IMG/VR virus record: IMGVR_UViG_3300050506_000125
Source of the DNA: a virus
Length of the DNA: 30,467 nt
Reading direction: 5' to 3' (one strand)
The stretch's first letter is position 1, and each line of letters starts with the position of its first letter. The position numbers were made by a program, and so were the translations under genes. The notes under the pieces are model-generated. The model ran no database searches and was not told where the DNA came from. It saw only the letters and a list, made by a program, of their open reading frames with translations. Shown here piece by piece: positions 19,878-30,467 of this stretch.

Positions 19878-20056
19878 TGGAAATATCAATGAAGGGCGTA
19901 GCAATGCAACAAGTAGTTAATGATGGTCAATATCACACTTGCATGATTTGTTTAAAATTTATGGATAAAGACTGTGATGTGGTTGAAGATCACATAATGA
20001 AAACCCATACTAGAATACTTGCCTTGATTGCAGAGGAACAGAAGTCCGATGACTAG
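19874..20056 (+). CDS. C2H2 zinc-finger protein (60 aa)
   Basis: CMIC-x12-H-x4-H (CMICLKFMDKDCDVVEDHIMKTH) has classical C2H2 spacing. Confidence 0.6.
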   Translation: MMEISMKGVAMQQVVNDGQYHTCMICLKFMDKDCDVVEDHIMKTHTRILALIAEEQKSDD

Positions 20057-20225
20057 CAAGTTATCTTGTAATCAAGAACTCTTGGCAAAATTAATCATTA
20101 TGAAAGAGTTTTGTGATTATATGACAATAGTCAATTTCCTAAAGGGTTCTGAGTATTGCAAGGTCTTTTATGATGTCTATTTCGAATGTTCTAGAATATT
20201 GAGAAGGTACGGAGTAATAAATTGA
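20049..20225 (+). CDS. Hypothetical protein (58 aa from ATG)
   Basis: Track ORF is 20028-20225. The first ATG is at 20049 (MTSKLSCNQ...). Confidence 0.4.
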   Translation: MTSKLSCNQELLAKLIIMKEFCDYMTIVNFLKGSEYCKVFYDVYFECSRILRRYGVIN

Positions 20226-20710
20226 TACCAAAGACATCTCTTTACAAAGGAACTGTAGTTGATTCGGTTAAGACCATGATAGATGTAAACAAGCTTCTTG
20301 CTAAATTTGGCATACAAGAGAAACGACTAACTCAACAAGGTGGTGACAAATCCTATTTTGAATTTATAATAAGAAAAGACAATGATGTATCATTGATGAT
20401 TAAAATCAAAATACCATTCATAGAGAAAGGTTCAAGGTATTCAAAAGAATATGACGAAGCTAGGTCTTACAGATATTTTTACCATTATCTCAAAGCTTTA
20501 CTGTCTGCAAAAGAAGCAGAGATGTATTCCATTGAAGAGATATTCATGGCTCACATAGTTATGAAGCTTCCAAGTGGCGAGTCAGTTACATTAGGAGATC
20601 AGCTTGTCAAACAGATTGAATCAGGTAATACACCAATGCTAAATGATTTTGAAGTTGTGGGTAGTAAAGAGAAACCCAAGCTTGAGTTAAGGAAGATTGA
20701 GACCCAATGA
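20222..20710 (+). CDS. Hypothetical protein (162 aa)
   Basis: Track ORF with TTGA coupling. No motif I can name with confidence. Confidence 0.55.
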   Translation: MIPKTSLYKGTVVDSVKTMIDVNKLLAKFGIQEKRLTQQGGDKSYFEFIIRKDNDVSLMIKIKIPFIEKGSRYSKEYDEARSYRYFYHYLKALLSAKEAEMYSIEEIFMAHIVMKLPSGESVTLGDQLVKQIESGNTPMLNDFEVVGSKEKPKLELRKIETQ

Positions 20711-20729
20711 CATCCCGAGGTGCAAGTAA

Positions 20730-21092
20730 TTGAGTTTAGTTCATAAATTAAACTTTAAAGCTATTGTAGTCGGTATTCTAGTTTGCATAGGAACTGCTTT
20801 TGGAATGTATGAAGTAAGCCCGTCTATTATTAAATTTATGAATCCAAATACAGACTTATCATGTAATAGTATTACTATTGAAGATTGGCAGAAATCTCCA
20901 ATACATGATGAAGCTAAATCTTTAGATGAGTTTAAACAACTTTGTTTAAAATATAATCATCAATTAAATGACGTAATGCCTCAACAAATACAATTTGTTA
21001 TGACCGTCTTACCTTCTATTCTTGTAATATGTGCTTTCGCTATGTTTCGATTACATATCAAAGACTTCGATAACCAGATGGAGAGCAAGTAA
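20730..21092 (+). CDS. Membrane protein (120 aa, N- and C-terminal TM helices)
   Basis: Track ORF with a TTG start. Linked to the previous gene through an 8-codon bridging ORF (20707-20733, MTSRGASN). Confidence 0.5.
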   Translation: MSLVHKLNFKAIVVGILVCIGTAFGMYEVSPSIIKFMNPNTDLSCNSITIEDWQKSPIHDEAKSLDEFKQLCLKYNHQLNDVMPQQIQFVMTVLPSILVICAFAMFRLHIKDFDNQMESK

Positions 21093-21397
21093 TGAAACTA
21101 GATTCAAGTAATCTCTACTTACAAAAGAATCAGAAAGGCTATGAAGTTTGTATTGCTATGCCTGATGGATCAAGAAACCATCTTCATAATGAACCTTCAC
21201 CTTTAGATGAAGCAATTTGGATAATGGGCGATTTTGATGGTCAATATGAATTAGAAGATGTAAATGTAATCGAGGATGGAAGTTACTTTAGACTTCAATT
21301 AAATCTAACAGATGGTAGAGGTAAACCACAAGTATTCCATTCAAGGAAATTAAACTTAAACGATGCTATTTATGAACGAGGTATCTTACTCCAATGA
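21092..21397 (+). CDS. Hypothetical protein (101 aa)
   Basis: Track ORF with TAATG coupling. Confidence 0.55.
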   Translation: MKLDSSNLYLQKNQKGYEVCIAMPDGSRNHLHNEPSPLDEAIWIMGDFDGQYELEDVNVIEDGSYFRLQLNLTDGRGKPQVFHSRKLNLNDAIYERGILLQ

Positions 21398-21834
21398 CAC
21401 AGCCGTCATCAAGTAATAGGAAGATTGCTTTTGTTGGTACAAGTGTCAATATGACAGATAATGAAGAAAGGGATGTTAGACAGTTCATAGGCTTAATTTT
21501 GAACAGTCGTTACACTGGAAATGAGATAATAATTTCTGGTGGTGCTAAAGGCGTTGATACCATCGCTTTAGATGTTGCCAAGTCATTAGGATTTGAGACT
21601 CTCGTTTACAAACCTGATTATGAAACATGGCAATCTTATAAGAAAAGAAACCTACAGATAGCAAATGATTGTGACGAATTACATTGTATATCCGTACCTG
21701 TTCATAAAACAAAGTGTTATCATCACGAAGATCCAGAAGAAAGAAACCATGAGAAAACTGCTGGATGTTGGACAATGAATAAGGTTTTAGAGTTAGGTAA
21801 ATCCGCACAATTAATGGTGACTTTCTCCCGATGA
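21394..21834 (+). CDS. SLOG-superfamily Rossmann protein (DUF2493 / DprA-Smf-like), 146 aa
   Basis: IIISGGAKGVDTIALDVAKSLG...YKPDY......YKKRNLQIANDCDELHCI matches the GGAxGxD...RN...D pattern of DUF2493/DprA-type SLOG domains as remembered. Confidence 0.6.
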   Translation: MTQPSSSNRKIAFVGTSVNMTDNEERDVRQFIGLILNSRYTGNEIIISGGAKGVDTIALDVAKSLGFETLVYKPDYETWQSYKKRNLQIANDCDELHCISVPVHKTKCYHHEDPEERNHEKTAGCWTMNKVLELGKSAQLMVTFSR

Positions 21835-21974
21835 CAAGCAAACCAAAGAGTAATTACAAACAACATGAATTTGAAGTAGTAGGATTTCATGTTATTTGTA
21901 AGTGGTGTGGTGCTTCAAAATATGGATTTAGAAAAAGAAAAGAATGTATCCCTAGCAGGAGATTAATCCAATGA
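21831..21974 (+). CDS. Mini-ORF with CxxC (47 aa)
   Basis: ATGA overlaps at both ends. Sequence: MTSKPKSNYKQHEFEVVGFHVICKWCGASKYGFRKRKECIPSRRLIQ. Confidence 0.4.
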   Translation: MTSKPKSNYKQHEFEVVGFHVICKWCGASKYGFRKRKECIPSRRLIQ

Positions 21975-22345
21975 CATCTACAACAAACGGTCTGGAAGTG
22001 CCTGATAGATTGAATCCAAGATCAATACTAGTATGCAATTTAGCATTAATAGAATGTGGTGGAGAAATGATAAACACTCCTAAATCAATAATGGAACACA
22101 TGATAAATAATCATGGTTGGAGAAAAGTTCCAGAAATGGCTCAGGAAGATATAGACCAAAAGAAGCCTCATCCAAAGACAAAGGAGATAATGACAGAAGA
22201 AAGTTATCTCAAATTTATAGATGAACATCCCGAAGAATGGTGGTTAGATATGCAGTTCATTTGGACTGATATAAGAAACATTCACTTTCTGCATAAAAAC
22301 TCAAAAGGTGTTAGAAGTCTAAGGAGTTATTACCATGAGTGCTAA
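21971..22345 (+). CDS. Hypothetical protein (124 aa)
   Basis: Track ORF. Cys/His cluster near the N-terminus (C..C...H....H). Confidence 0.55.
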   Translation: MTSTTNGLEVPDRLNPRSILVCNLALIECGGEMINTPKSIMEHMINNHGWRKVPEMAQEDIDQKKPHPKTKEIMTEESYLKFIDEHPEEWWLDMQFIWTDIRNIHFLHKNSKGVRSLRSYYHEC

Positions 22346-22475
22346 ATCCTCGTCAACAAAAGATAACAACGGTTTAGATGAGGGCGGTAGTGTTGGCGAC
22401 ATTTCCCTGATGGGACAAAGGGGTTCGAAACCCCAAGCCCTCATTACATTTCAAAAGGAGAGTCCGAGAGAATGA
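22335..22475 (+). CDS. Possible 46-aa ORF spanning the tRNA-like GC island
   Basis: Sequence: MSAKSSSTKDNNGLDEGGSVGDISLMGQRGSKPQALITFQKESPRE. Its TGA overlaps the next ATG as ATGA. Hydrophilic and low-complexity. It competes with the tRNA-like reading of the same bases. Confidence 0.3.
   Translation: MSAKSSSTKDNNGLDEGGSVGDISLMGQRGSKPQALITFQKESPRE
22380..22443 (+). other. tRNA-like fragment (T-arm + acceptor-like ends); candidate attP core
   Basis: GGGG-TTCGAAA-CCCC T-arm followed by AGCCCTC-A. GAGGGC at 22380-85 is complementary to GCCCTC at 22437-42. At 64 nt it lacks proper D and anticodon arms, so it is not a functional canonical tRNA. It is a conspicuous GC island in an AT-rich genome. 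Confidence 0.35.
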
Positions 22476-22705
22476 CTTTAGATAGAGAAAGATTTGAAAA
22501 AACAGGTGCGAGTGTAGGCACTTGGTTTTATCAATTAGATGTTACAGAAACAGAGATGAATGATATTCTAAGAAATCAAAAAATTGTATCTAAATTAAAT
22601 ACACTGGTTGATTCAATGGATGTAGAAGGCTCTATTCCTAATCATTGGGTTAAAGAAGTTTTAAGTAACCTTCTCAAAGACGGTTCGGTGAATTTGTCAA
22701 AATGA
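22472..22705 (+). CDS. Hypothetical protein (77 aa)
   Basis: Track ORF. AAGGAGAG SD upstream. Confidence 0.55.
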   Translation: MTLDRERFEKTGASVGTWFYQLDVTETEMNDILRNQKIVSKLNTLVDSMDVEGSIPNHWVKEVLSNLLKDGSVNLSK

Positions 22706-22866
22706 ATCTAAAATGTCTTTTTGGAACACATGATTATCGTATTCAATATTTAGACTATAATGAAAATGCAAAACGTACATATCAGATAATCTGCCAAAGA
22801 TGTGATAAAATCCTGAATATGACTAATATGACTTCATTAAAGGAATACACTAGGAGACAAAGGTAA
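22702..22866 (+). CDS. Mini-ORF with CxxC (54 aa)
   Basis: ATGA coupling. Sequence: MNLKCLFGTHDYRIQYLDYNENAKRTYQIICQRCDKILNMTNMTSLKEYTRRQR. Confidence 0.4.
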   Translation: MNLKCLFGTHDYRIQYLDYNENAKRTYQIICQRCDKILNMTNMTSLKEYTRRQR

Positions 22867-22872
22867 TTAGAA

Positions 22873-23010
22873 ATGCCTTGTATTCATTGTGGATGTAATC
22901 GAGAATGGCATGAGTATCAAAGAGATGGTGGTTCACATAGTGGAGATTGTACGAATCCAGATTGTAAAGCAGGTGAGCATTTTTATGATTCGGGGAGAAA
23001 AATTAGATGA
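22873..23010 (+). CDS. Cys/His mini-protein (45 aa)
   Basis: Sequence: MPCIHCGCNREWHEYQRDGGSHSGDCTNPDCKAGEHFYDSGRKIR. The stop overlaps the next ATG as ATGA. Confidence 0.4.
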   Translation: MPCIHCGCNREWHEYQRDGGSHSGDCTNPDCKAGEHFYDSGRKIR

Positions 23011-23216
23011 TCTTATACGGTGGAAGGAAATATGAAACGAATAAAAGTATACTAAAACGTTATCAGAAAAGTAAGTACGTTAAGATCCTAACTACATTTG
23101 AAAAAGGTTTCAATGATGAGAATTTCAGAGAGGGTGAATGTCAATTATGTGGTGGTATCTTTAAACTCGCTGGAATAGGTGGACATCTTCATTACAAACA
23201 TGGAGTAAAAAGGTAA
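23007..23216 (+). CDS. C2H2-like zinc-finger protein (69 aa)
   Basis: Track ORF. CQLC-x11-H-x-H-x2-H. Confidence 0.55.
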   Translation: MILYGGRKYETNKSILKRYQKSKYVKILTTFEKGFNDENFREGECQLCGGIFKLAGIGGHLHYKHGVKR

Positions 23217-23441
23217 TTGAGAGAATTTGCTACTGCTTGTTATACATGTACTAATGTAAAAACTGGTGCTGTTCCTATAGTCTTTACCACAATGAAAAAG
23301 AATGAGACCAAAATCAAGATACAAGGAGATTTTTATGATAAGCATATAGCCAAAAATCATCAAGTAAAAACAGTAGAGATTTCTTCAATCACTCAAGCAA
23401 AGAAAAAACCTAAAGTCTCGATTACTAAAGAGAGGGCGTGA
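23217..23441 (+). CDS. Hypothetical basic protein (74 aa)
   Basis: Track ORF with a TTG start directly after the upstream TAA. CYTC...H....H. Confidence 0.45.
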   Translation: MREFATACYTCTNVKTGAVPIVFTTMKKNETKIKIQGDFYDKHIAKNHQVKTVEISSITQAKKKPKVSITKERA

Positions 23442-23442
23442 C

Positions 23443-23544
23443 GTGAAGCTTTGTATGTGTAAGATCCATATGTTTCATCAATCCTGTAAACCAGAATGTA
23501 ATTGTATGAAAGAAGTAACTGCTAGCTTTTCAATTATAAAATAA
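23443..23544 (+). CDS. Possible Cys-rich mini-ORF (33 aa, GTG start)
   Basis: Sequence: KLCMCKIHMFHQSCKPECNCMKEVTASFSIIK. Weak: non-ATG start and no clear SD. Confidence 0.2.
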   Translation: MKLCMCKIHMFHQSCKPECNCMKEVTASFSIIK

Positions 23545-23554
23545 AAAGAATTGA

Positions 23555-23587
23555 CGATCTAGATATGGGGTTGGTATAACTAGATCG
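23555..23587. terminator. Stem-loop at the convergence point of the two transcription directions
   Basis: CGATCTAG (23555-62) pairs with CTAGATCG (23580-87), and 3-4 further pairs follow an A.A mismatch. On the - strand it is followed directly by TTCTTTTTATTTT. Confidence 0.45.
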
Positions 23588-23682
23588 CCAACACTACATT
23601 TTCCTGGAAGGCTTGTCAACCATTCAGTTGTTTAATAATTGATTTGGTACTTATTAAATATTATTGTGTAAGGTTCTGGTAA

Positions 23683-23997
23683 CTAACAATTAAGCAAATG
23701 TAATATTTGTGTTATTATACTAGGTGTTATCCCTGCATTGTTTAGAATCGACCTTTCACTAAAACAAACTACTATTGGTGCAGAGCAATGATGATATTTA
23801 TCTATATTACAAACTACTGGTGGTGGAGATGTTACACCGTGTGGTACTACTTTTTTGTGGCAAAAAGTTAAACCACCAAAATAACTACATGGATTCCACC
23901 CAACACGACCTCCTGCATAGGCTTGTTGGGATGTTGCACTAAAGAAAACTATGCTTGAAATAGAGGCTATAATTAAAACAGCTACCAATTTATTCAT
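23683..23997 (-). CDS. Secreted Cys-rich protein (104 aa)
   Basis: Track ORF. Signal peptide MNKLVAVLIIASISSIVFFSATSQQAYA. 8 Cys in the mature part. Last gene of the structural operon. Confidence 0.6.
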   Translation of the reverse strand: MNKLVAVLIIASISSIVFFSATSQQAYAGGRVGWNPCSYFGGLTFCHKKVVPHGVTSPPPVVCNIDKYHHCSAPIVVCFSERSILNNAGITPSIITQILHLLNC

Positions 23998-24055
23998 GTT
24001 ATTTTAAGGTATCATATCTTAATAAGCATTATCATGTTATTTTTAGAAATTACAA

Positions 24056-27000
24056 CTATCCTTTATTCTTTAATAGAATTTCAGGCACGCTTGAAGTGCT
24101 TAGTGTGGCATTTGTATAAAATGGACTAGGTAAAGCAGTTGGTGAACTTGTACCCATTGTATGTGAAGTTGTGTACATTGTATTACCGTTTGTTGCGCCC
24201 ATTGTATTTATCATTCCTAGATATGGAGCTAATGAAGAAGCTGGTATTGCTCTAAATACTGGTAGAGATGACACAGCGGGCGGATTTAATTCAATTAAAA
24301 CATCTGCGGTATTTTGTCTATTGGCAGCTGGTAAAGCCCAATTCCAAGTCATTTTATTAGCTGAATTTATTATTGGATTTGTTTTATATTGTGAAGCACC
24401 AGCTACTTGATTAGCGCCTGTTATACTATTCCAAGCCTGTGTATTTGATGGAGCTTGTGGTATTGCTTCATTAAGTCCGCCCGCTGTATCTATACCAAAT
24501 ATGTTTTCAATCAACCATGCATTAGTATGTGTTGGCGTTCCAGAAATTGAACTTGTTCTGGTTGTTGTACCATTACTAGATGTAATACCTATTGGTGTTG
24601 TTTGATGTACATTGTATAACGAATAACCACCAGTTATCATATAATATGATGCTGTAGTTACTGGTGTTATAGTTACGGTTTGTAATCCTGTTGGTGGATT
24701 TACTAGATACCATATCTCACTATCCAAAGCAAAGTTAGCTGTGGCATTATTTCTAGTAAAGTTTACAGCTTTAGTAAAAGATGTACCGCCTATTGCTACA
24801 CTAGATATAACAGCATTGTTAGTATTTGGTGTACTAGCTCCTTTTCCATAAGATATAGGAACAACCAATATACGATTTGTATTACTTCCTATTGTTATTG
24901 TAAATGTTTGTGTCGCACTTGTTGAAGCTCCGGCTGTTGTAGATGATGTAATAACATCGGTTGTTATTGTATTTACTACGGTTCCAGCATTACAATCTAA
25001 TGCGTTAAAATATCTTCCTTCCGGTAAATGTATATCACTTGTAAAGTTATTTATTATTGTTCTAGTAGTCCGTGTCTGTGTTGTTAATGCACCAACATCT
25101 GAACCAGAAATTTTATTGTATGGATATCCATTATAATCAGAATATAATGCCATTCTACAATTAGAAGCCGATCCAGCTGTTGTTACTTCCGATTGTATGG
25201 TACTTAGAGAAGTGGTACGATCTAATTTGAACGGAATGGCGTAAAGTGTATTATTTGTTACAGCTAATGTAGTTGGTGTACCTTGATTATTCCATGAACC
25301 ATAATAACTATTAACTGTATTTTTTAATGAATTGATTGCTATACTAGATTGTATAGGAGTTTTCTTAAACCATGTTGTACCGTTGTTATCAATTAATAAA
25401 GTATCCATAGGATTTGTCATGTTTAAATTGGTAAAGTAATCTATGGTTGAGCTTGTTGGAACTATCTCAATATAATTATTAGAATAATCAATCTTCTTTA
25501 TCATTAGTTCTTTTCCCGTACTCATTGTTGCTATAGTAGGAATAGTAATAGTATAGTTACCTCCTGTTGCATTTACTAATATAATATCATCTGTAGATGC
25601 AACAGTATAAGAATTAGTTTTACTTACTGCATTAAGTAACATTTTATTACATGTAGAATCTGAACTGTTTGATATTGCTGATATAAATTGATTGTTTGTA
25701 CAAGCCTTTGTATTAATTTTAAACTGGAAGCTAGGTGTAATTGATGTTGTATTATGATTCCATAATACATAAGCTGTTGAATTACGTAATGATTTTAATT
25801 TTGTTTCTGTTGCATTAAATTGTGAACTAATTAAACTTACTCCATTGTCTGCGCTTACTACTTGAGCTGTATTAGTGGGTGTTGCACATGTATAAATTCC
25901 AGTTGAATTTGTAAATGCAGAAATGAATTGATTCGTACATGCAATAGTATTAGATTTGAAACTAGAAGCTAGATTAACATTATTAGAAGATTGAGTTATT
26001 GTAAATAGATCAGATCTTGAAGTAGTTAAGTTTCTTAGATTAATATTATTATTTGTACTGTTCTTGAAGAAACCAAAACCAGAAGTACCGATATTAGATC
26101 CACCAGTGATTGTTCCAGTTGTACTAGAACATGTTGGACATGATATAGCTATATCTGTATCATTTGTTTTTGTAACTACAATAGGACTAGTACCTGTCAT
26201 GTTTCTGCCTTTGATTAACGTAGTTGTAGGTGTTGATAATACACCAACTGAACCAGTAGCTTTACCAGCGTTTGCACTTCCTGTTATAGTTCCTGTTGTA
26301 GTTGAACAAGTAGGGCAAGAAACATTTACTTGACCAGTTGATGCGTTAACTACAACTGGTGATGTTGCAGCTAATTTTGTCACACCCGTATTAGTTACTA
26401 AAATATTTCCTGATGTTTGATTTACCGATATTCCAGTACCAGCAATTAATTTTGTTACAATACTTGGAATATTAAATATAACATTGGTGGAGTTTGTTGT
26501 TATACTTAGAAAGGAATTTGATGATATTAGTTTTAAGAATTGCAATATTGATCCACTCATTGAAGCAAAGACACCAGAACCACTTGTACCTAAATTAGAA
26601 CCCGTATTGTTTTGCCAACCAGCTGCGTTTATGGTTATAGTATTACCAGCTGCGGTTATGGAATTGATGTTTGTTCCTTTGGCTATTGTTAAAGCACCTG
26701 TCAAACTATTTAATGATGTTACACCAGAACCAGATCCAGTTTGATTTAACAATGCACAAGCTAGAATATTTGTCGTTGCGTTATAAGAAACAAATCCAAA
26801 GTTAGCAGGACAATAAGTAGTTGGTAATCCTGATGATGGATTAGGAGCTGTTAGATATATTGTTTGAGAACTGTTAGAACCTGTTACACCTAAACCATTC
26901 TTTCCTACTATATTAACAGAAGCAATAAAGTTCTTTGCTGAAATGGTAGCATTGCTTACATTAAATTGATTGTACGCATTTGTTGGTGGTATGTTAACGG

Positions 27001-27094
27001 TTGGTGGTTGAATTGCGAATTGTGCGTTAGCTGATGAAATGTAGATAGATGATATAAAAACTATTAGGATTAGAAGGTAAGTTCTTCTTATCAT
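24056..27094 (-). CDS. Large secreted S/T/N-rich adhesin-like / terminal-fibre candidate (1012 aa)
   Basis: Track ORF. Signal peptide MIRRTYLLILIVFISSIYISSANA. Internal repeats (..SCPTCS[TS]TTGTITG.. twice; ..ACTN(N)QFISA.. twice). Very many NxS/T sequons. No C-terminal TM helix. Confidence 0.8.
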   Translation of the reverse strand: MIRRTYLLILIVFISSIYISSANAQFAIQPPTVNIPPTNAYNQFNVSNATISAKNFIASVNIVGKNGLGVTGSNSSQTIYLTAPNPSSGLPTTYCPANFGFVSYNATTNILACALLNQTGSGSGVTSLNSLTGALTIAKGTNINSITAAGNTITINAAGWQNNTGSNLGTSGSGVFASMSGSILQFLKLISSNSFLSITTNSTNVIFNIPSIVTKLIAGTGISVNQTSGNILVTNTGVTKLAATSPVVVNASTGQVNVSCPTCSTTTGTITGSANAGKATGSVGVLSTPTTTLIKGRNMTGTSPIVVTKTNDTDIAISCPTCSSTTGTITGGSNIGTSGFGFFKNSTNNNINLRNLTTSRSDLFTITQSSNNVNLASSFKSNTIACTNQFISAFTNSTGIYTCATPTNTAQVVSADNGVSLISSQFNATETKLKSLRNSTAYVLWNHNTTSITPSFQFKINTKACTNNQFISAISNSSDSTCNKMLLNAVSKTNSYTVASTDDIILVNATGGNYTITIPTIATMSTGKELMIKKIDYSNNYIEIVPTSSTIDYFTNLNMTNPMDTLLIDNNGTTWFKKTPIQSSIAINSLKNTVNSYYGSWNNQGTPTTLAVTNNTLYAIPFKLDRTTSLSTIQSEVTTAGSASNCRMALYSDYNGYPYNKISGSDVGALTTQTRTTRTIINNFTSDIHLPEGRYFNALDCNAGTVVNTITTDVITSSTTAGASTSATQTFTITIGSNTNRILVVPISYGKGASTPNTNNAVISSVAIGGTSFTKAVNFTRNNATANFALDSEIWYLVNPPTGLQTVTITPVTTASYYMITGGYSLYNVHQTTPIGITSSNGTTTRTSSISGTPTHTNAWLIENIFGIDTAGGLNEAIPQAPSNTQAWNSITGANQVAGASQYKTNPIINSANKMTWNWALPAANRQNTADVLIELNPPAVSSLPVFRAIPASSLAPYLGMINTMGATNGNTMYTTSHTMGTSSPTALPSPFYTNATLSTSSVPEILLKNKG

Positions 27095-27501
27095 TCGACT
27101 TCATTATCTTCCCTTACGCCCTGAGCTGGTGCTTTTGTTAACAGGTTCAAGATTTGTTTTATCATATAGAATATTAGAGTAATAGCTAACAACCAATGGA
27201 ACATTGACCATACTGGATTTTGAAGTATGATAGTATTTGATTGTGTCGTAGCTTCTGTCCATGTTTGTGTAGTGTTTATGGATTTGATTAAGTTGTTTGT
27301 TGTTACTGTATTTACATCTATGTTTATTCCAGAGCTTGCAAGAATCATTAATGCTATGATACCGGGAAATAAATAAATTACTCTAACTAAAGATAAGACT
27401 CTACTATCTGGAATTTCTTTAACAGCTGAAACAATTAGAACAGCGAAAGAAGAATATCCAATTAAAGCGTACACAATATATTCAAGAATAGAAATTTCCA
27501 T
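27091..27501 (-). CDS. Membrane protein (136 aa, about 3 TM)
   Basis: Track ORF. 4-nt overlap with the adhesin gene. Confidence 0.6.
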   Translation of the reverse strand: MEISILEYIVYALIGYSSFAVLIVSAVKEIPDSRVLSLVRVIYLFPGIIALMILASSGINIDVNTVTTNNLIKSINTTQTWTEATTQSNTIILQNPVWSMFHWLLAITLIFYMIKQILNLLTKAPAQGVREDNEVE

Positions 27502-27504
27502 AAA

Positions 27505-27921
27505 CTAAATGCCACGCACCAATCCCATTATGGAACGACCTAAAAAGAAAGTGTATAATGCCATGAATCCCATTATGAAAATTATTGGTACTTGCATATC
27601 ATTCATTATACCAAATATGTAAAATCCAGATATTAATAAAATCATATCCCAAGCTATTATAGCAGCTGATCCTAAATATGTCGCAGGGTTTTGTATCTGA
27701 CTAATCCAAGAAGAAGTCTGGTTAGTAAATGCTTGTTGTTCTTGGTTTAGTGTTGCTGTCTGTATATTAGAAAATATATCTGTCTTAATTGGTACACCAG
27801 AGAAATTAGTTAGTTGAATGTGCATCACATCACCAAAGATAAATTGTCCACCTAACATTGAAATATTTACACAGTACACGAAAATTACTGCTAATAAACT
27901 TTTCTCAATTACAAAGACCAA
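27505..27921 (-). CDS. Membrane protein (138 aa, about 4 TM)
   Basis: Track ORF. TTG start behind AGGGTGAT. Confidence 0.6.
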   Translation of the reverse strand: MVFVIEKSLLAVIFVYCVNISMLGGQFIFGDVMHIQLTNFSGVPIKTDIFSNIQTATLNQEQQAFTNQTSSWISQIQNPATYLGSAAIIAWDMILLISGFYIFGIMNDMQVPIIFIMGFMALYTFFLGRSIMGLVRGI

Positions 27922-27935
27922 GCTAATTTATCACC

Positions 27936-29344
27936 CTAACCAAAATCCTGTGATTTGCGTGTCGAGAGATATATGAGCATTGTTATCACGATCAAAGCTC
28001 CTATGATTGCTGTATTTATTGTTATGATTTGTATCAGTCCTTCTATGCCTAATATTGCTAGTGCAAAGAAAGCACCCACTGATTCATTCTTTCTATTGAA
28101 TCCTATCATGGCTATTATTATTCCCACTAGTGAAATTAAATCAAATACTCCAAATTGTCCATGTGTTCCAAATGTTCCGTTTCTAAAACCTGATACCTGA
28201 GTTTGTAAAGGAAAACCAGTTTGAGTTAAAATGTATTTGCCTGTTGAAGATGATATAGTATCAAGACAAGATACAGTTATTATTTCATTGTTTACTTTAT
28301 GGAATATGAAGCTAGAGTTTACATGATTTGGATCTGGTGTATAAGGAACATTAGGTAATGGAGCTCCATAGGTTTTGTTTGTGAAGGCATATGTATAAGC
28401 TAGGTTACATTGCAGATTCATTGTATTAGGATATATCACTGACAATCTTTTATCACTTGCGTTTATCTGTGTTGTTATGAAATAGATAGGAAGCACGTTT
28501 GTATTGGTTTGATTAAAGTTTAACGAACCCGGTCTAAATGAATTAAATATTAAATTAAACGGTGTAGATGTTATTACACTTACTTGCGTTGGTGTTGATA
28601 CAATAGCTTCTTCTGTATAGGTAATAGTTCCAACTGGATTTGATATGTCACGTAAAGTAATTGGAATAGTAAGTTGTGTACCAGCTACCAAAGGGAAAGG
28701 TGGATTAAATATTATAGAGTCTTGTAAACCATTTTGATTAAATAAAAGTAATGCAGTAAGATTAGAATTAACAGGACTGGATAAAGTTATGTTTGAATTA
28801 GAAAATACACCAGCTCCACTTAGAATAATTCCTTTTATTGTAAAGCTAGATGATGTAATAGAACCAGCTACCCATGATATGAATATGGTATGATGTGTAC
28901 CCGGACTGATTTGAGTCATGGTATTACCACCAGTATATGACCATGTAGATCCATATGGTTGTATAACTCCATCTAGCTTAACCTGTTGGATTAATCCTAG
29001 AATAGTAAATGTTGGATTAACTGGATTGTTTGTTATTTTGAATGTAGCGTTTACACCTTCATGGAAAGATGTAATGTTAGCGTTTACTGTATTTCCAATC
29101 CATACAATATCATATGATGGTGAACCAAGAAATATATGATTAGTGTTTGTTGTTATGGAACTAACAGTAAAGAATGGATGTACATCAGCTGTATAATTTG
29201 AATAAGGATGAGGTGCGCTGTTTTGTATTTGAGTACCGGGATAAACATCTACTGCATAAGCATCATGGATATAAAATATGGATAGTACAGAAATTCCTAA
29301 CAGGACGAGTAAATAGAACTCGTTTTTTTTTTATTCCGTTCCAT
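27936..29344 (-). CDS. Structural glycoprotein with signal peptide and 2-3 C-terminal TM helices; about 469 aa only if an A10 run is read with a -1 shift (or is really A11)
   Basis: The track ORF (327 aa) starts at ATG 28919, but the same frame is open for 137 more codons up to 29330. That stretch encodes KKNEFYLLVLLGISVLSIFYIHDAYA|VD, a signal peptide with no start codon. The only ATG (29344-29342, TAATG with the upstream stop) reads MERNKKK into the A10 run (T10 at 29323-29332), then TSSIYSSC* in the other frame. Confidence 0.6.
29323..29332 (-). other. A10 (T10 on + strand) homopolymer at the frame junction of the glycoprotein gene
   Basis: Counted as cg-tttttttttt-att on the + strand. 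It contains the A_AAA_AAC-type slippery pattern in the ATG frame. Confidence 0.9.
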
Positions 29345-29955
29345 TATGATCCCTGATAGATTATTAGTCTGTCAATTATTCCAGTAGTATCTAAACCAAA
29401 TATTCCTATATATTTTCCATCACTTGATATAGATACACCTTCATTGGATAAGTTTGTACCATCATTAAACTGTGATGTGTTAATGAATAGAGTTTGTAAT
29501 ACCGCATCATTCTTTGATACTGTTATTTTCTTTGTAGAATCATTGTAAGCTATTTTATATTTCCCCCCGAATGATTGATCATTTTGTGGAGTATTCTCGA
29601 CTACTGCACCAGAATTAGAAAATGAATTAATTACTTGTTGTGTACTGTTTATCATATAACCCTGTACAAAAGTATCTGAAACTAAGACTGATTTGTCATT
29701 ACCAATTTGAAACTTATTTATAAAATGAATATTAGTTGTTGCTATTGTATTATTAAAAACTAAAGCATAAGAATTAAAACTACCAGCACCACCACAACCT
29801 GAACAAGTTCCTGTTACTGTAAGATTAGTTGTTGTAATTCCAGTATCAGTTATTATGGTACTAGCTGCATAAGCTGAACTGGAAATAGCACCAGCAAGAA
29901 TAATTAATATGATTGAGGTTTTAGGATGTGATGATATAAAAGAAAGTCTTTTCAT
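29344..29955 (-). CDS. Secreted protein (203 aa)
   Basis: Track ORF. Signal peptide MKRLSFISSHPKTSIILIILAGAISSSAYA. T/N/S-rich with several sequons and a CSGC pair. Confidence 0.65.
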   Translation of the reverse strand: MKRLSFISSHPKTSIILIILAGAISSSAYAASTIITDTGITTTNLTVTGTCSGCGGAGSFNSYALVFNNTIATTNIHFINKFQIGNDKSVLVSDTFVQGYMINSTQQVINSFSNSGAVVENTPQNDQSFGGKYKIAYNDSTKKITVSKNDAVLQTLFINTSQFNDGTNLSNEGVSISSDGKYIGIFGLDTTGIIDRLIIYQGS

Positions 29956-29995
29956 GGTATCATTTCTCTATAACAATAATTAATAAAGTTTATGC

Positions 29996-30265
29996 CTAGT
30001 CACTTCCTTTAACCGAAGCTGCCATAAGCACTTTCAAGACTAGTAGAAAAACTCCAATACTAGGAATTAACGGTACTAGAAATTTAGTAGTGTTTTCATT
30101 TTGTGTATAAATTGCTTGCCAACTAGATGACATGGTACTGGTAAGATTGTATGAATCAAGTACAGTAAAGAAGTGTCCTAGTATTTGCGGAACAAGTAGA
30201 AATACAATTCCGTATGTTATTATGAATACGATTGTAGAAAGTCCAAGAAATACAAGACTACTCAA
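29996..30265 (-). CDS. Second VP1/VP3-like two-helix hydrophobic protein (89 aa); minor capsid candidate
   Basis: Track ORF. TTG start behind GGGGTGA. It has the same architecture as the 298-579 product. It carries 'PQILGH' after helix 1 (versus 'VQILGN'), sequons in the loop (NLT, NTT), and 'FLVPLIPSIGVFLLVL' in helix 2. Confidence 0.5.
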   Translation of the reverse strand: MSSLVFLGLSTIVFIITYGIVFLLVPQILGHFFTVLDSYNLTSTMSSSWQAIYTQNENTTKFLVPLIPSIGVFLLVLKVLMAASVKGSD

Positions 30266-30390
30266 TCTTTCACCCCTAAGGCTTCATACTTGGAATTATC
30301 TGATTCTTTAGTATCATCTGATAGCTTCTTTGTAGTTTTTATAATGGCACTAGCTACCGCTACATCCACCAACAAATCAAAGATACTCAT
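30262..30390 (-). CDS. Mini-ORF (42 aa)
   Basis: Sequence: MSIFDLLVDVAVASAIIKTTKKLSDDTKESDNSKYEALGVKD. ATGA overlap upstream and TTGA overlap downstream. Part of it lies in the terminal repeat (same as 1-50). Confidence 0.35.
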   Translation of the reverse strand: MSIFDLLVDVAVASAIIKTTKKLSDDTKESDNSKYEALGVKD

Positions 30391-30467
30391 TTGTAAAATG
30401 GTTCTCCTTTCTTTGGATTTGTCTTGGCTAGTTTTCTAAAGAACTCTAAAGGTTCTCCATAGGTCAT
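30341..30467. repeat. Right copy of the 127-nt exact direct terminal repeat
   Basis: Identical to 1-127. Confidence 0.95.
30387..30467 (-). CDS. Mini-ORF (26 aa), first cistron of the structural operon
   Basis: Sequence: MTYGEPLEFFRKLAKTNPKKGEPFYK. Same bases as 47-127. In the circle, TTCTATATC lies about 20 nt upstream of its ATG (rc of 128-150). Confidence 0.25.
   Translation of the reverse strand: MTYGEPLEFFRKLAKTNPKKGEPFYK

Follow-up and report, generated by a model that had tools for sequence, protein, structure and literature searches.

A conserved A/T homopolymer tract between the start codon and the body of a predicted surface-protein gene in relatives of Nitrosopumilaceae spindle-shaped viruses: a case for recoding by +1 slippage

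Programmed transcriptional slippage has been described for Thermus thermophilus dnaX at a run of nine A residues (A9), for Shigella flexneri mxiE at a U-run, and for the transposases of insertion sequence (IS) elements, and slippage becomes productive from a run of about 9 nt, approximately the length of the RNA:DNA hybrid (PMC1088944). In A/T runs, transcription errs mostly by inserting one nucleotide (+1), and the rate of this insertion grows exponentially as the run lengthens (PMC5574713). Polymerase stuttering is known at A7 in the Ebola virus GP gene and at GA6 in potyvirus P3N-PIPO (PMC1088944, PMC4552492, PMC5027478). For archaea, the described recoding consists of one experimentally proven -1 programmed ribosomal frameshift (PRF), that of Saccharolobus solfataricus fucA1 (A-AAA-AAT), and a few predicted shifts in the tail genes of tailed haloviruses, namely HVTV-1 and HCTV (PMC8211752). 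Our literature search found no report of an archaeal polymerase using transcriptional slippage for gene expression and no paper linking archaeal viruses with homopolymer slippage, and the paper describing the virus group treated here mentions neither frameshifts nor homopolymers (PMC10866085). The present analysis concerns a gene on the minus strand (27936-29344) of the virus record IMGVR_UViG_3300050506_000125, a stretch of 30,467 nt that is called the window throughout. Direct reading of this gene showed that the frame of the start codon and the frame of the body were joined at a run of ten A residues (A10, 29323-29332; T10 on the plus strand), a slippery tract.

The sole initiator of the gene was the ATG at 29342-29344, which overlapped the stop codon (TAA, 29346-29344) of the gene for a 203-aa secreted protein in the arrangement TAATG. 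The 0 frame read ATG GAA CGG AAT AAA AAA AAA ACG AGT TCT ATT TAC TCG TCC TGT TAG, that is, MERNKKK across A10 and then TSSIYSSC with a stop 8 codons later, and the product of standard decoding was a short ORF (open reading frame) of 15 aa, MERNKKKTSSIYSSC* (29297-29344). The -1 frame opened directly after a TAA at 29333-29331, encoded KKNEFYLLVLLGISVLSIFYIHDAYA (29253-29330), continued past the signal-peptide cleavage site with VDVYPGT, and contained no stop codon until 27936. When joined to the MERN of the 0 frame, these first codons made up a signal peptide, which is probably cleaved off. They were followed by 111 codons of the N-terminal mature ectodomain (28920-29252), which had no start codon of their own and were conserved across homologues, and then by the 327-aa ORF as called from an internal Met at 28919 (27936-28919), which takes up the last two thirds of the real gene. 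The body comprised 464 codons in all, 137 of which lay open upstream of the called ATG at 28919; the probability of 137 codons staying open was about 7e-5 at the stop-codon frequency of the window. The body frame contained no ATG, GTG or TTG ahead of the cleavage site. The addition of one A gave a computed protein of 469 aa. These readings bore out a first-pass annotation of the window, which had described a called ORF whose frame extends 137 codons upstream into a signal peptide without a start, a single TAATG-coupled initiator read through the A-run to an early stop, and a protein of about 469 aa with signal peptide, ectodomain and 2-3 TM helices upon gain of one A.

A10 was the sole A/T run of at least 9 nt in the 30.5-kb window, and the numbers expected from shuffled sequences were about 2.8 runs of at least 9 nt and 0.86 runs of at least 10 nt. 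An in-frame near-cognate start codon was rejected as the source of the protein: none was conserved, and initiation there would shorten the signal peptide. Fusion with the upstream gene was excluded because the TAA closed the body frame just before the run. Chance alone was also discarded as an explanation of the run, the position of which was kept in more than 35 lineages.

The junction DNA was read in every relative that could be retrieved (given below by locus handles, L001 and so on), in all cases as assembly consensus sequence, and the soil clade comprised 18 lineages. Seventeen of these carried one A/T run of at least 9 nt (A9-10 or T10-11), and in 14 of the 18 the start codon and the body were out of frame. 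The out-of-frame tract was A10 in the window (represented also by L001 and L002), L003, L097 and L098; A9 in L088 and L096; T11 in NTM1 (L004/L005/L085); and T10 in L006, L007, L010, L102, L107, L089-95 (seven samples) and L099-101 (three samples). The tract was in frame as T10 in L008 and L009 and as T11 in L087, and the remaining lineage, L086, was in frame with no tract and a GTG start. The sequence of L086 (1494-1530; protein P0003) read GTG TTA AAA AAT TTA ATT at this place, and the lineage, having lost the tract, forms a natural "fixed-ON" control. The tract began 4-13 nt past the upstream stop codon, equal to 7-13 nt past the proximal start codon, and it was the sole A/T run of at least 9 nt in three complete genomes.

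All 14 out-of-frame lineages required exactly one additional nucleotide ((anchor - start) mod 3 = 2), and the phase requiring removal of one nucleotide was found in none of 15 out-of-frame cases, which included these 14 soil lineages and a second gene at L023:5573. The junctions of L001 and L002 were identical to that of the window, and L003, which was 87% identical with differing flanks, had the same layout. A comparison of the junction in related contigs had been proposed in the first-pass annotation, and it recovered the out-of-frame layout in L003 and 12 further lineages; the contrary outcome named there, homologues that begin at the internal ATG and have a closed frame before it, was not seen, the upstream frame being open and conserved in all homologues. 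T10 was present in 7/7 JGI samples of one virus (L089-95) and in 3/3 samples of another (L099-101), and no tract-length polymorphism was detected among near-identical contigs at the consensus level (7/7, 3/3, 3/3 and 3/3 uniform). NTM1 and L089 were separated by a 2-nt upstream indel and a 1-nt change in the tract, and both were still in the phase that requires +1.

In the protein tree, A-run and T-run lineages interleaved with at least three switches, L097 (A10) being sister to L099 (T10), and the in-frame tract lineages (L008, L009 and L087) formed one small clade. The A-run encoded Lys-Lys-Lys in the n-region of the signal peptide, and the T-run encoded Phe-Phe-Phe in its h-region. Judged from these sequences, the conserved thing is the homopolymer and not the peptide, and the tract itself is selected, as a single run of at least 9 nt was kept despite the A/T switches. 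Scans of IMG/VR for further relatives returned NTM1 only, and the genome collection yielded no match by protein pattern and one by DNA pattern. This last match (L109, QZKE01000072.1), from a 50%-GC metagenome-assembled genome labelled "Actinobacteria", agreed with the degenerate NAYAVTVYPG DNA pattern; the surrounding protein was unrelated, and the match was attributed to chance.

Purifying selection acts strongly on the start-less N-terminus. For the 114 codons after the cleavage site, the comparison of the window with L003, both out of frame, gave a ratio of non-synonymous to synonymous substitution rates (dN/dS) of 0.05 at a dS of 0.67. The same codons gave 0.13 for L089-L004 and 0.08 at a dS of 1.24 for L010-L102, both members again being out of frame in each pair and the two pairs lying at dS of 0.9-1.2, and out-of-frame pairs were separated by dS of 0.7-1.5. 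Substitutions in the stretch from the tract to the cleavage site were distributed 6/6/18 over body-frame codon positions 1/2/3. Direct reading of the window against L003 showed that the changes after the tract were all non-synonymous in the 0 frame and mostly synonymous in the -1 frame. All 464 body codons were open in the 14 out-of-frame lineages. The low dN/dS and the third-position bias, in the absence of an in-frame start, indicated that the body frame was translated from the tract onward.

Since the N-terminus was translated and selected and the sole initiator lay in a shifted register, one base of register must be added inside the tract. We consider it probable that this is a selectively maintained recoding event, achieved more likely by +1-nt transcriptional slippage than by -1 ribosomal frameshifting, and that it throttles a virion surface protein. 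The initiation codon would be kept one base out of register with the body, the two frames would meet in an A/T run of 9-11 nt, and the full-length protein would come only from expression events that effectively gain one base in the tract. The most likely route would be a backward slip of the host RNA polymerase that inserts one A (or U) into the mRNA, and an alternative or additional route would be for the ribosome to slip by -1 on A_AAA_AAA or U_UUU_UUU. The 15-aa dead-end peptide would be the product of standard decoding. The outcome would be a low, tunable dosage relative to the translationally coupled upstream genes, those of the major capsid protein (MCP) and the 203-aa secreted protein. 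The slippage itself, its level and its efficiency, as well as the virion role of the protein, are what we infer from the layout and its conservation.

The locus had the features of known transcriptional slippage sites, with a run of at least 9 nt at the junction of overlapping frames, a conserved layout, and a downstream frame under purifying selection. It also had the heptamer of -1 PRF sites, because AAT AAA AAA AAA ACG holds A_AAA_AAA in the 0 frame with the body in -1, and all T-run lineages held U_UUU_UUU or U_UUU_UUA. Transcriptional slippage was favoured because the tract was never shorter than 9 nt when out of frame, though 7 nt suffice for PRF, because A and T runs both appear to serve, and because no clearly conserved stimulatory structure was found. 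The occurrence of the +1 phase only would be explained if a 1-base contraction of the DNA is rescued by the common +1 insertion in RNA, whereas an expansion needs the rare -1 deletion and is purged. A 5-bp hairpin (CGAGT-TCTATTT-ACTCG) directly followed A10 in the window (29306-29322, minus strand); it had lost one pair in L003 and was absent in L097, and it is probably fortuitous. In several soil lineages with a T-run, an 8-bp hairpin (CTGATTGG...CAGTTAG) followed that run at a distance of 2-3 nt (for example L007:331-355, L010:1413-1437). Its alignment columns (22-29/39-46) were 78% paired with four single-sequence compensatory changes and weak covariation. The hairpin is only suggestive: it may stimulate frameshifting or be a coincidence of the coding sequence.

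The locus resembled dnaX, mxiE and the IS elements in having at least 9 A/T at the junction of overlapping frames, with one non-templated base fusing the frames and the arrangement conserved among homologues; as in mxiE, where ORFa and ORFb are joined, the gain is +1 nt. Unlike in those genes, the run lay 2-4 codons past the start and inside the signal peptide, the 0-frame product was a 15-aa stub, poly-A and poly-T interchanged among relatives, and the host polymerase is archaeal. The Ebola GP and potyvirus PIPO cases offer an analogy: there, as is proposed here, a structural or membrane protein comes only from the minority of transcripts gaining one A in a short A-run. Those are RNA viruses with their own RNA-dependent polymerases, shorter runs and two functional frames, whereas the present virus is a double-stranded DNA virus of archaea that depends on the host polymerase. 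Ancient poly(A) frameshifts in insect endosymbionts, for which rescue by transcriptional slippage was proposed, were reportedly described by Tamas in 2008 and Wernegreen in 2010 and are discussed in PMC5574713. As there, frameshifts in homopolymers of about 10 nt were kept between diverged lineages under purifying selection; the endosymbionts, however, have many such tracts under relaxed selection, and here a compact viral genome has a sole long run at a fixed gene position.

With fucA1 and the haloviruses the locus shared an X_XXY_YYZ site in the 0 frame, a body in -1, and full-length relatives that differ by one base of the A-run. The fucA1 site, however, is of 7 nt with flanking rare codons and a stem-loop, and the tract here is of 9-11 nt with no clearly conserved stimulator; the shifts of HVTV-1 and HCTV are of the tail-chaperone type in head-tailed viruses, whereas this virus belongs with spindle-shaped ones. 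As in contingency loci, the homopolymer was situated at the 5' end of the coding region of a gene for a surface protein, and relatives had alleles of both kinds, in frame and out of frame. It differed from them in having no length polymorphism among near-identical genomes, a single phase, and stability over deep divergence. A homopolymer switch of this type is known in a Bifidobacterium pilus gene (PMC9187656). Finally, the T10 and T11 versions were like archaeal oligo-T terminators, being sense-strand T-runs just past the capsid gene, but the window tract was poly-A on the sense strand, and the run lay inside the coding sequence of the next gene.

The tract extended beyond the soil clade. In aquatic and sediment relatives, homology was limited to the C-terminal approximately 200 aa and the ORFs had 700-950 codons. 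Nineteen of 23 aquatic loci with the 5' end of the gene carried T10 (two of them T11) 9-20 nt past the start, all in frame and in at least two codon phases (L011-L072, for example L037:90, L042:1325 and L056:408; BK067792, 10832-10841). ORF9 of NYM1 likewise carried an in-frame T10. In most relatives the distance from the MCP stop codon to T10 was 10-20 nt. The exact length is kept at the nucleotide level, and the aquatic T10 may serve to terminate or attenuate transcription beyond the capsid gene. Loci without the tract were also observed (L064/L065, L043, BK067784 ORF12 and BK067786 ORF30), several of which had much larger ORFs (about 890-2,200 aa). In one sediment relative (SDBT01015127.1, L023:5555-5640), a second gene for a secreted protein carried T10 right after its ATG, out of frame and requiring +1, with MLALKFFF* in the 0 frame and VFFLIIPLALSLSFFLPEAEA-V in the body frame (the hyphen here and below marks the cleavage site). 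The homopolymer device may extend beyond one gene.

Several observations weigh against recoding by slippage at this locus. The evidence consisted throughout of assembly consensus sequences, and the 14 out-of-frame lineages were phylogenetically non-independent. The tract was in frame in 3 soil and 19 aquatic relatives and must have some other role too. RNA structure flanking the tract was not significantly stable, with fold z-scores from -1.6 to +1.5. Nothing was found in the literature on slippage of archaeal RNA polymerase at such tracts in Nitrososphaeria, and in a genome-wide study of Buchnera no transcript with a broken frame was restored by slippage (PMC5574713). In addition, a sense-strand T10 is expected to be a strong archaeal terminator (PMC2253867), which complicates read-through of the T-runs.

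In a rival reading, the tract is primarily an oligo-T terminator or attenuator downstream of a highly expressed capsid gene and the soil frame breaks are a tolerated side effect. Termination by archaeal RNA polymerase has been described at five to six T, with the strength of the U-tract setting efficacy (PMC2253867, PMC8716108). The position of T10 shortly past the MCP stop in most relatives agrees with this, as does the exact T10 held in differing codon phases by aquatic lineages without need of recoding. The window and five other lineages, however, have a sense-strand poly-A, which gives no terminator signal, and the window tract follows the 203-aa gene rather than the MCP gene. Moreover, translation of the start-less selected N-terminus would be left unexplained and recoding would still be required. 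Termination may hold for the aquatic T10 without displacing slippage for the window, but as the primary explanation of the tract it is improbable. Apart from the rivals, a broader reading that includes recoding can be put forward tentatively, with somewhat less than even confidence, in which a dedicated 10-nt homopolymer at codons 3-7 of a virion surface-protein gene is a control element at the nucleic-acid level across a whole group of viruses of ammonia-oxidising archaea: the sense T10 would attenuate transcription past the capsid gene, the soil A9-10 and T10-11 would impose obligatory +1 slippage, and DNA changes of ±1 would dial the dosage. A switch at the DNA level, in which replication slippage turns the surface protein ON and OFF, the assemblies represent the OFF majority, and ON minorities sustain selection, is unlikely, if less so than termination alone. 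A hypermutable simple repeat in the signal-peptide codons at the 5' end of a gene for a secreted, membrane-anchored protein occupies the classic position of a contingency locus, and some relatives are in frame and others out of frame. Long runs tend to contract when replication slips, which would also yield the phase that requires +1, and switching of virion receptor-binding genes by polyG tracts is reported to occur in Campylobacter phages. These points are offset by the uniform tract length in every near-identical contig set, by an out-of-frame state that lasted over dS of 0.7-1.5 with the in-frame tract lineages in one clade and unscattered, and by the single out-of-frame phase, with 0/15 requiring -1. 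Dominance of the OFF state in 14 lineages would be unexpected if the protein is needed, and dN/dS of 0.05-0.13 would be hard to reconcile with a protein that is not. No A11 (ON) form of the window protein was among the protein-search clusters returned, a result of little power as only three contigs of this virus were available.

Artefact and decay were weighed on the same data. If the homopolymer were undercounted and the true tract were one base longer (A11, T11 or T12), the gene would be an ordinary in-frame one. Indel errors are more frequent in homopolymers of at least 10 nt and tend towards deletion in PCR-based libraries, every such error would lie in the direction observed, and L001 and L002, being 100% identical to the window, may share its reads and are independent in assembler only. 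An undercount would nevertheless require 14/17 soil tracts to be miscalled when 19/19 aquatic T10/T11 and those of L008, L009 and L087 were assembled in frame, which argues against it. Equal length was obtained across JGI, MGnify MEGAHIT and Logan assemblies and in 7 and 3 separately sequenced samples, and in-frame T10 (L008, L009) and out-of-frame T10 (L006, L010) occurred within one JGI project series. Nor can an artefact account for the existence, conservation and A/T switching of the tract, and we regard this explanation as very improbable. Least credible of all is that the gene is a pseudogene or part of a defective element, or that its only product is the 327-aa protein from the internal ATG. 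Internal ATGs are indeed where ORF callers and the GenBank third-party annotation (TPA; BK067788 ORF59) begin, but dN/dS was 0.05-0.13 on the upstream 114 codons, 464 codons were open in 14 lineages, the third-position substitution bias began directly after the tract, and the signal peptide with its AYA-V motif was kept in all lineages. Among the three readings offered by the first-pass annotation, recoding is thus the best supported, an assembly error is unlikely, and a phase switch is weakened by the lack of length polymorphism. That annotation had not foreseen that the tract is family-wide, that it can be poly-T, and that it is mostly in frame in aquatic relatives.

The fused 469-aa protein had an n-region with a charge of +2, a hydrophobic core at residues 8-32, and an A-x-A site (A-Y-A). 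Its ectodomain contained 10 N-x-S/T sequons, and the start-less part of it (residues 32-142) included the peptide VDVYPGTQIQNSAPHPYSNYTADVHPFFTVSSITTNTNHIFLGSPSYDIVWIGNTVNANITSFHEGVNATFK. Hydrophobic C-terminal segments were found at residues 395-418 and 422-464, and the corresponding membrane-anchor region (27954-28163, minus strand) contained 2-3 hydrophobic helices and an invariant IGFNRxNE motif. The homologues P0003 (461 aa) and P0011 (449 aa) had Met, signal peptide and NAYA-VTV(Y/F)PGT all in one frame. An AlphaFold model of low confidence (pLDDT 59) showed a helix at residues 2-22, a β-sandwich ectodomain, and C-terminal helices. A Foldseek search with this model gave generic Ig/FN3-like β-sandwich matches only, with template modelling (TM) scores of 0.15-0.3 and no function assigned, and Pfam and PHROG scans of the fused protein matched no family. 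The designation of the protein as a putative virion surface glycoprotein therefore draws on gene position and sequence features.

Positions 1-127 of the window were repeated at 30341-30467, and the gene order of L001 wrapped accordingly; this 127-nt terminal repeat, a k=127 assembly overlap, indicated a circular genome of about 30.3 kb (about 30,340 bp). The window encoded an integrase, an AAA ATPase, and a D12 methyltransferase. The structural module consisted, in order, of a 42-aa ORF, the MCP gene, the gene of the 203-aa secreted protein, the split gene, two genes for small membrane proteins, and the gene of a 1012-aa secreted protein. The putative MCP (29996-30265, minus strand), of 89 aa with two hydrophobic helices and the ending VLMAASVKGSD*, marked this module, and its gene adjoined the tract gene directly upstream in many relatives. 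The 203-aa gene (29344-29955, minus strand), coupled to the tract gene by TAATG, belonged to a type with the C-terminus R(L/V)xI(F/Y)xG(S/H)* that also preceded the tract gene in L003, L087, L088, L097 and L099. The 1012-aa protein (24056-27094, minus strand), rich in Asn, Thr and Ser, contained the motif (V/I)SCPTCS(T/S)TTGTITG twice and gave only a weak sub-threshold match to a Zn-ribbon; it probably serves as a large fibre or adhesin of the virion.

An α-hairpin MCP of 89 aa was described in the "Nitrosopumilaceae spindle-shaped viruses" (PMC10866085), a group that is further characterised by a genome of 27-38 kb, an ATPase, a shared gene cluster, and the lack of a family B DNA polymerase (PMC10866085). 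With its circular genome of about 30.3 kb, 89-aa MCP-like ORF, AAA ATPase and integrase, the window is a relative of this group (NYMAG-47 relatives); no polymerase domain was detected in the subset of window ORFs scanned. The fused protein matched nine BK0677xx genomes, the best at 49.6% identity in the soil virus NTM1 (BK067788 ORF59). A megablast search of window positions 20000-30467 against phage records gave no near-identical record. In GenBank, the TPA entry for NTM1 ORF59 (BK067788.1, record 21281-22480) started at an internal ATG, and both homology and the open frame continued upstream for at least another 135 nt, as far as the T11 tract (L004:3001-3136). The annotated protein therefore lacks the signal peptide and the N-terminus, being about 50 codons short.

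The analysis revises how a conserved structural gene is annotated in viruses of ammonia-oxidising archaea, BK067788 ORF59 being an example, and warns that gene callers systematically mis-start the tract gene. The locus also constitutes a phylogenetically replicated natural experiment: 14 of the soil lineages are out of frame, 3 carry the tract in frame and 1 lacks it, and about 20 aquatic lineages are in frame. Relative to known sites, the differences are the position 2-4 codons past the start within a signal peptide, the interchange of poly-A and poly-T, the archaeal machinery, and the spindle-shaped virus. If the proposed slippage is true, an archaeal RNA polymerase would for the first time be shown to carry out programmed transcriptional slippage, and recoding would be recorded for the first time in a non-tailed archaeal virus. 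The locus suggests that control of surface-protein dosage matters to these uncultured viruses, whose hosts are nitrifiers of global importance.

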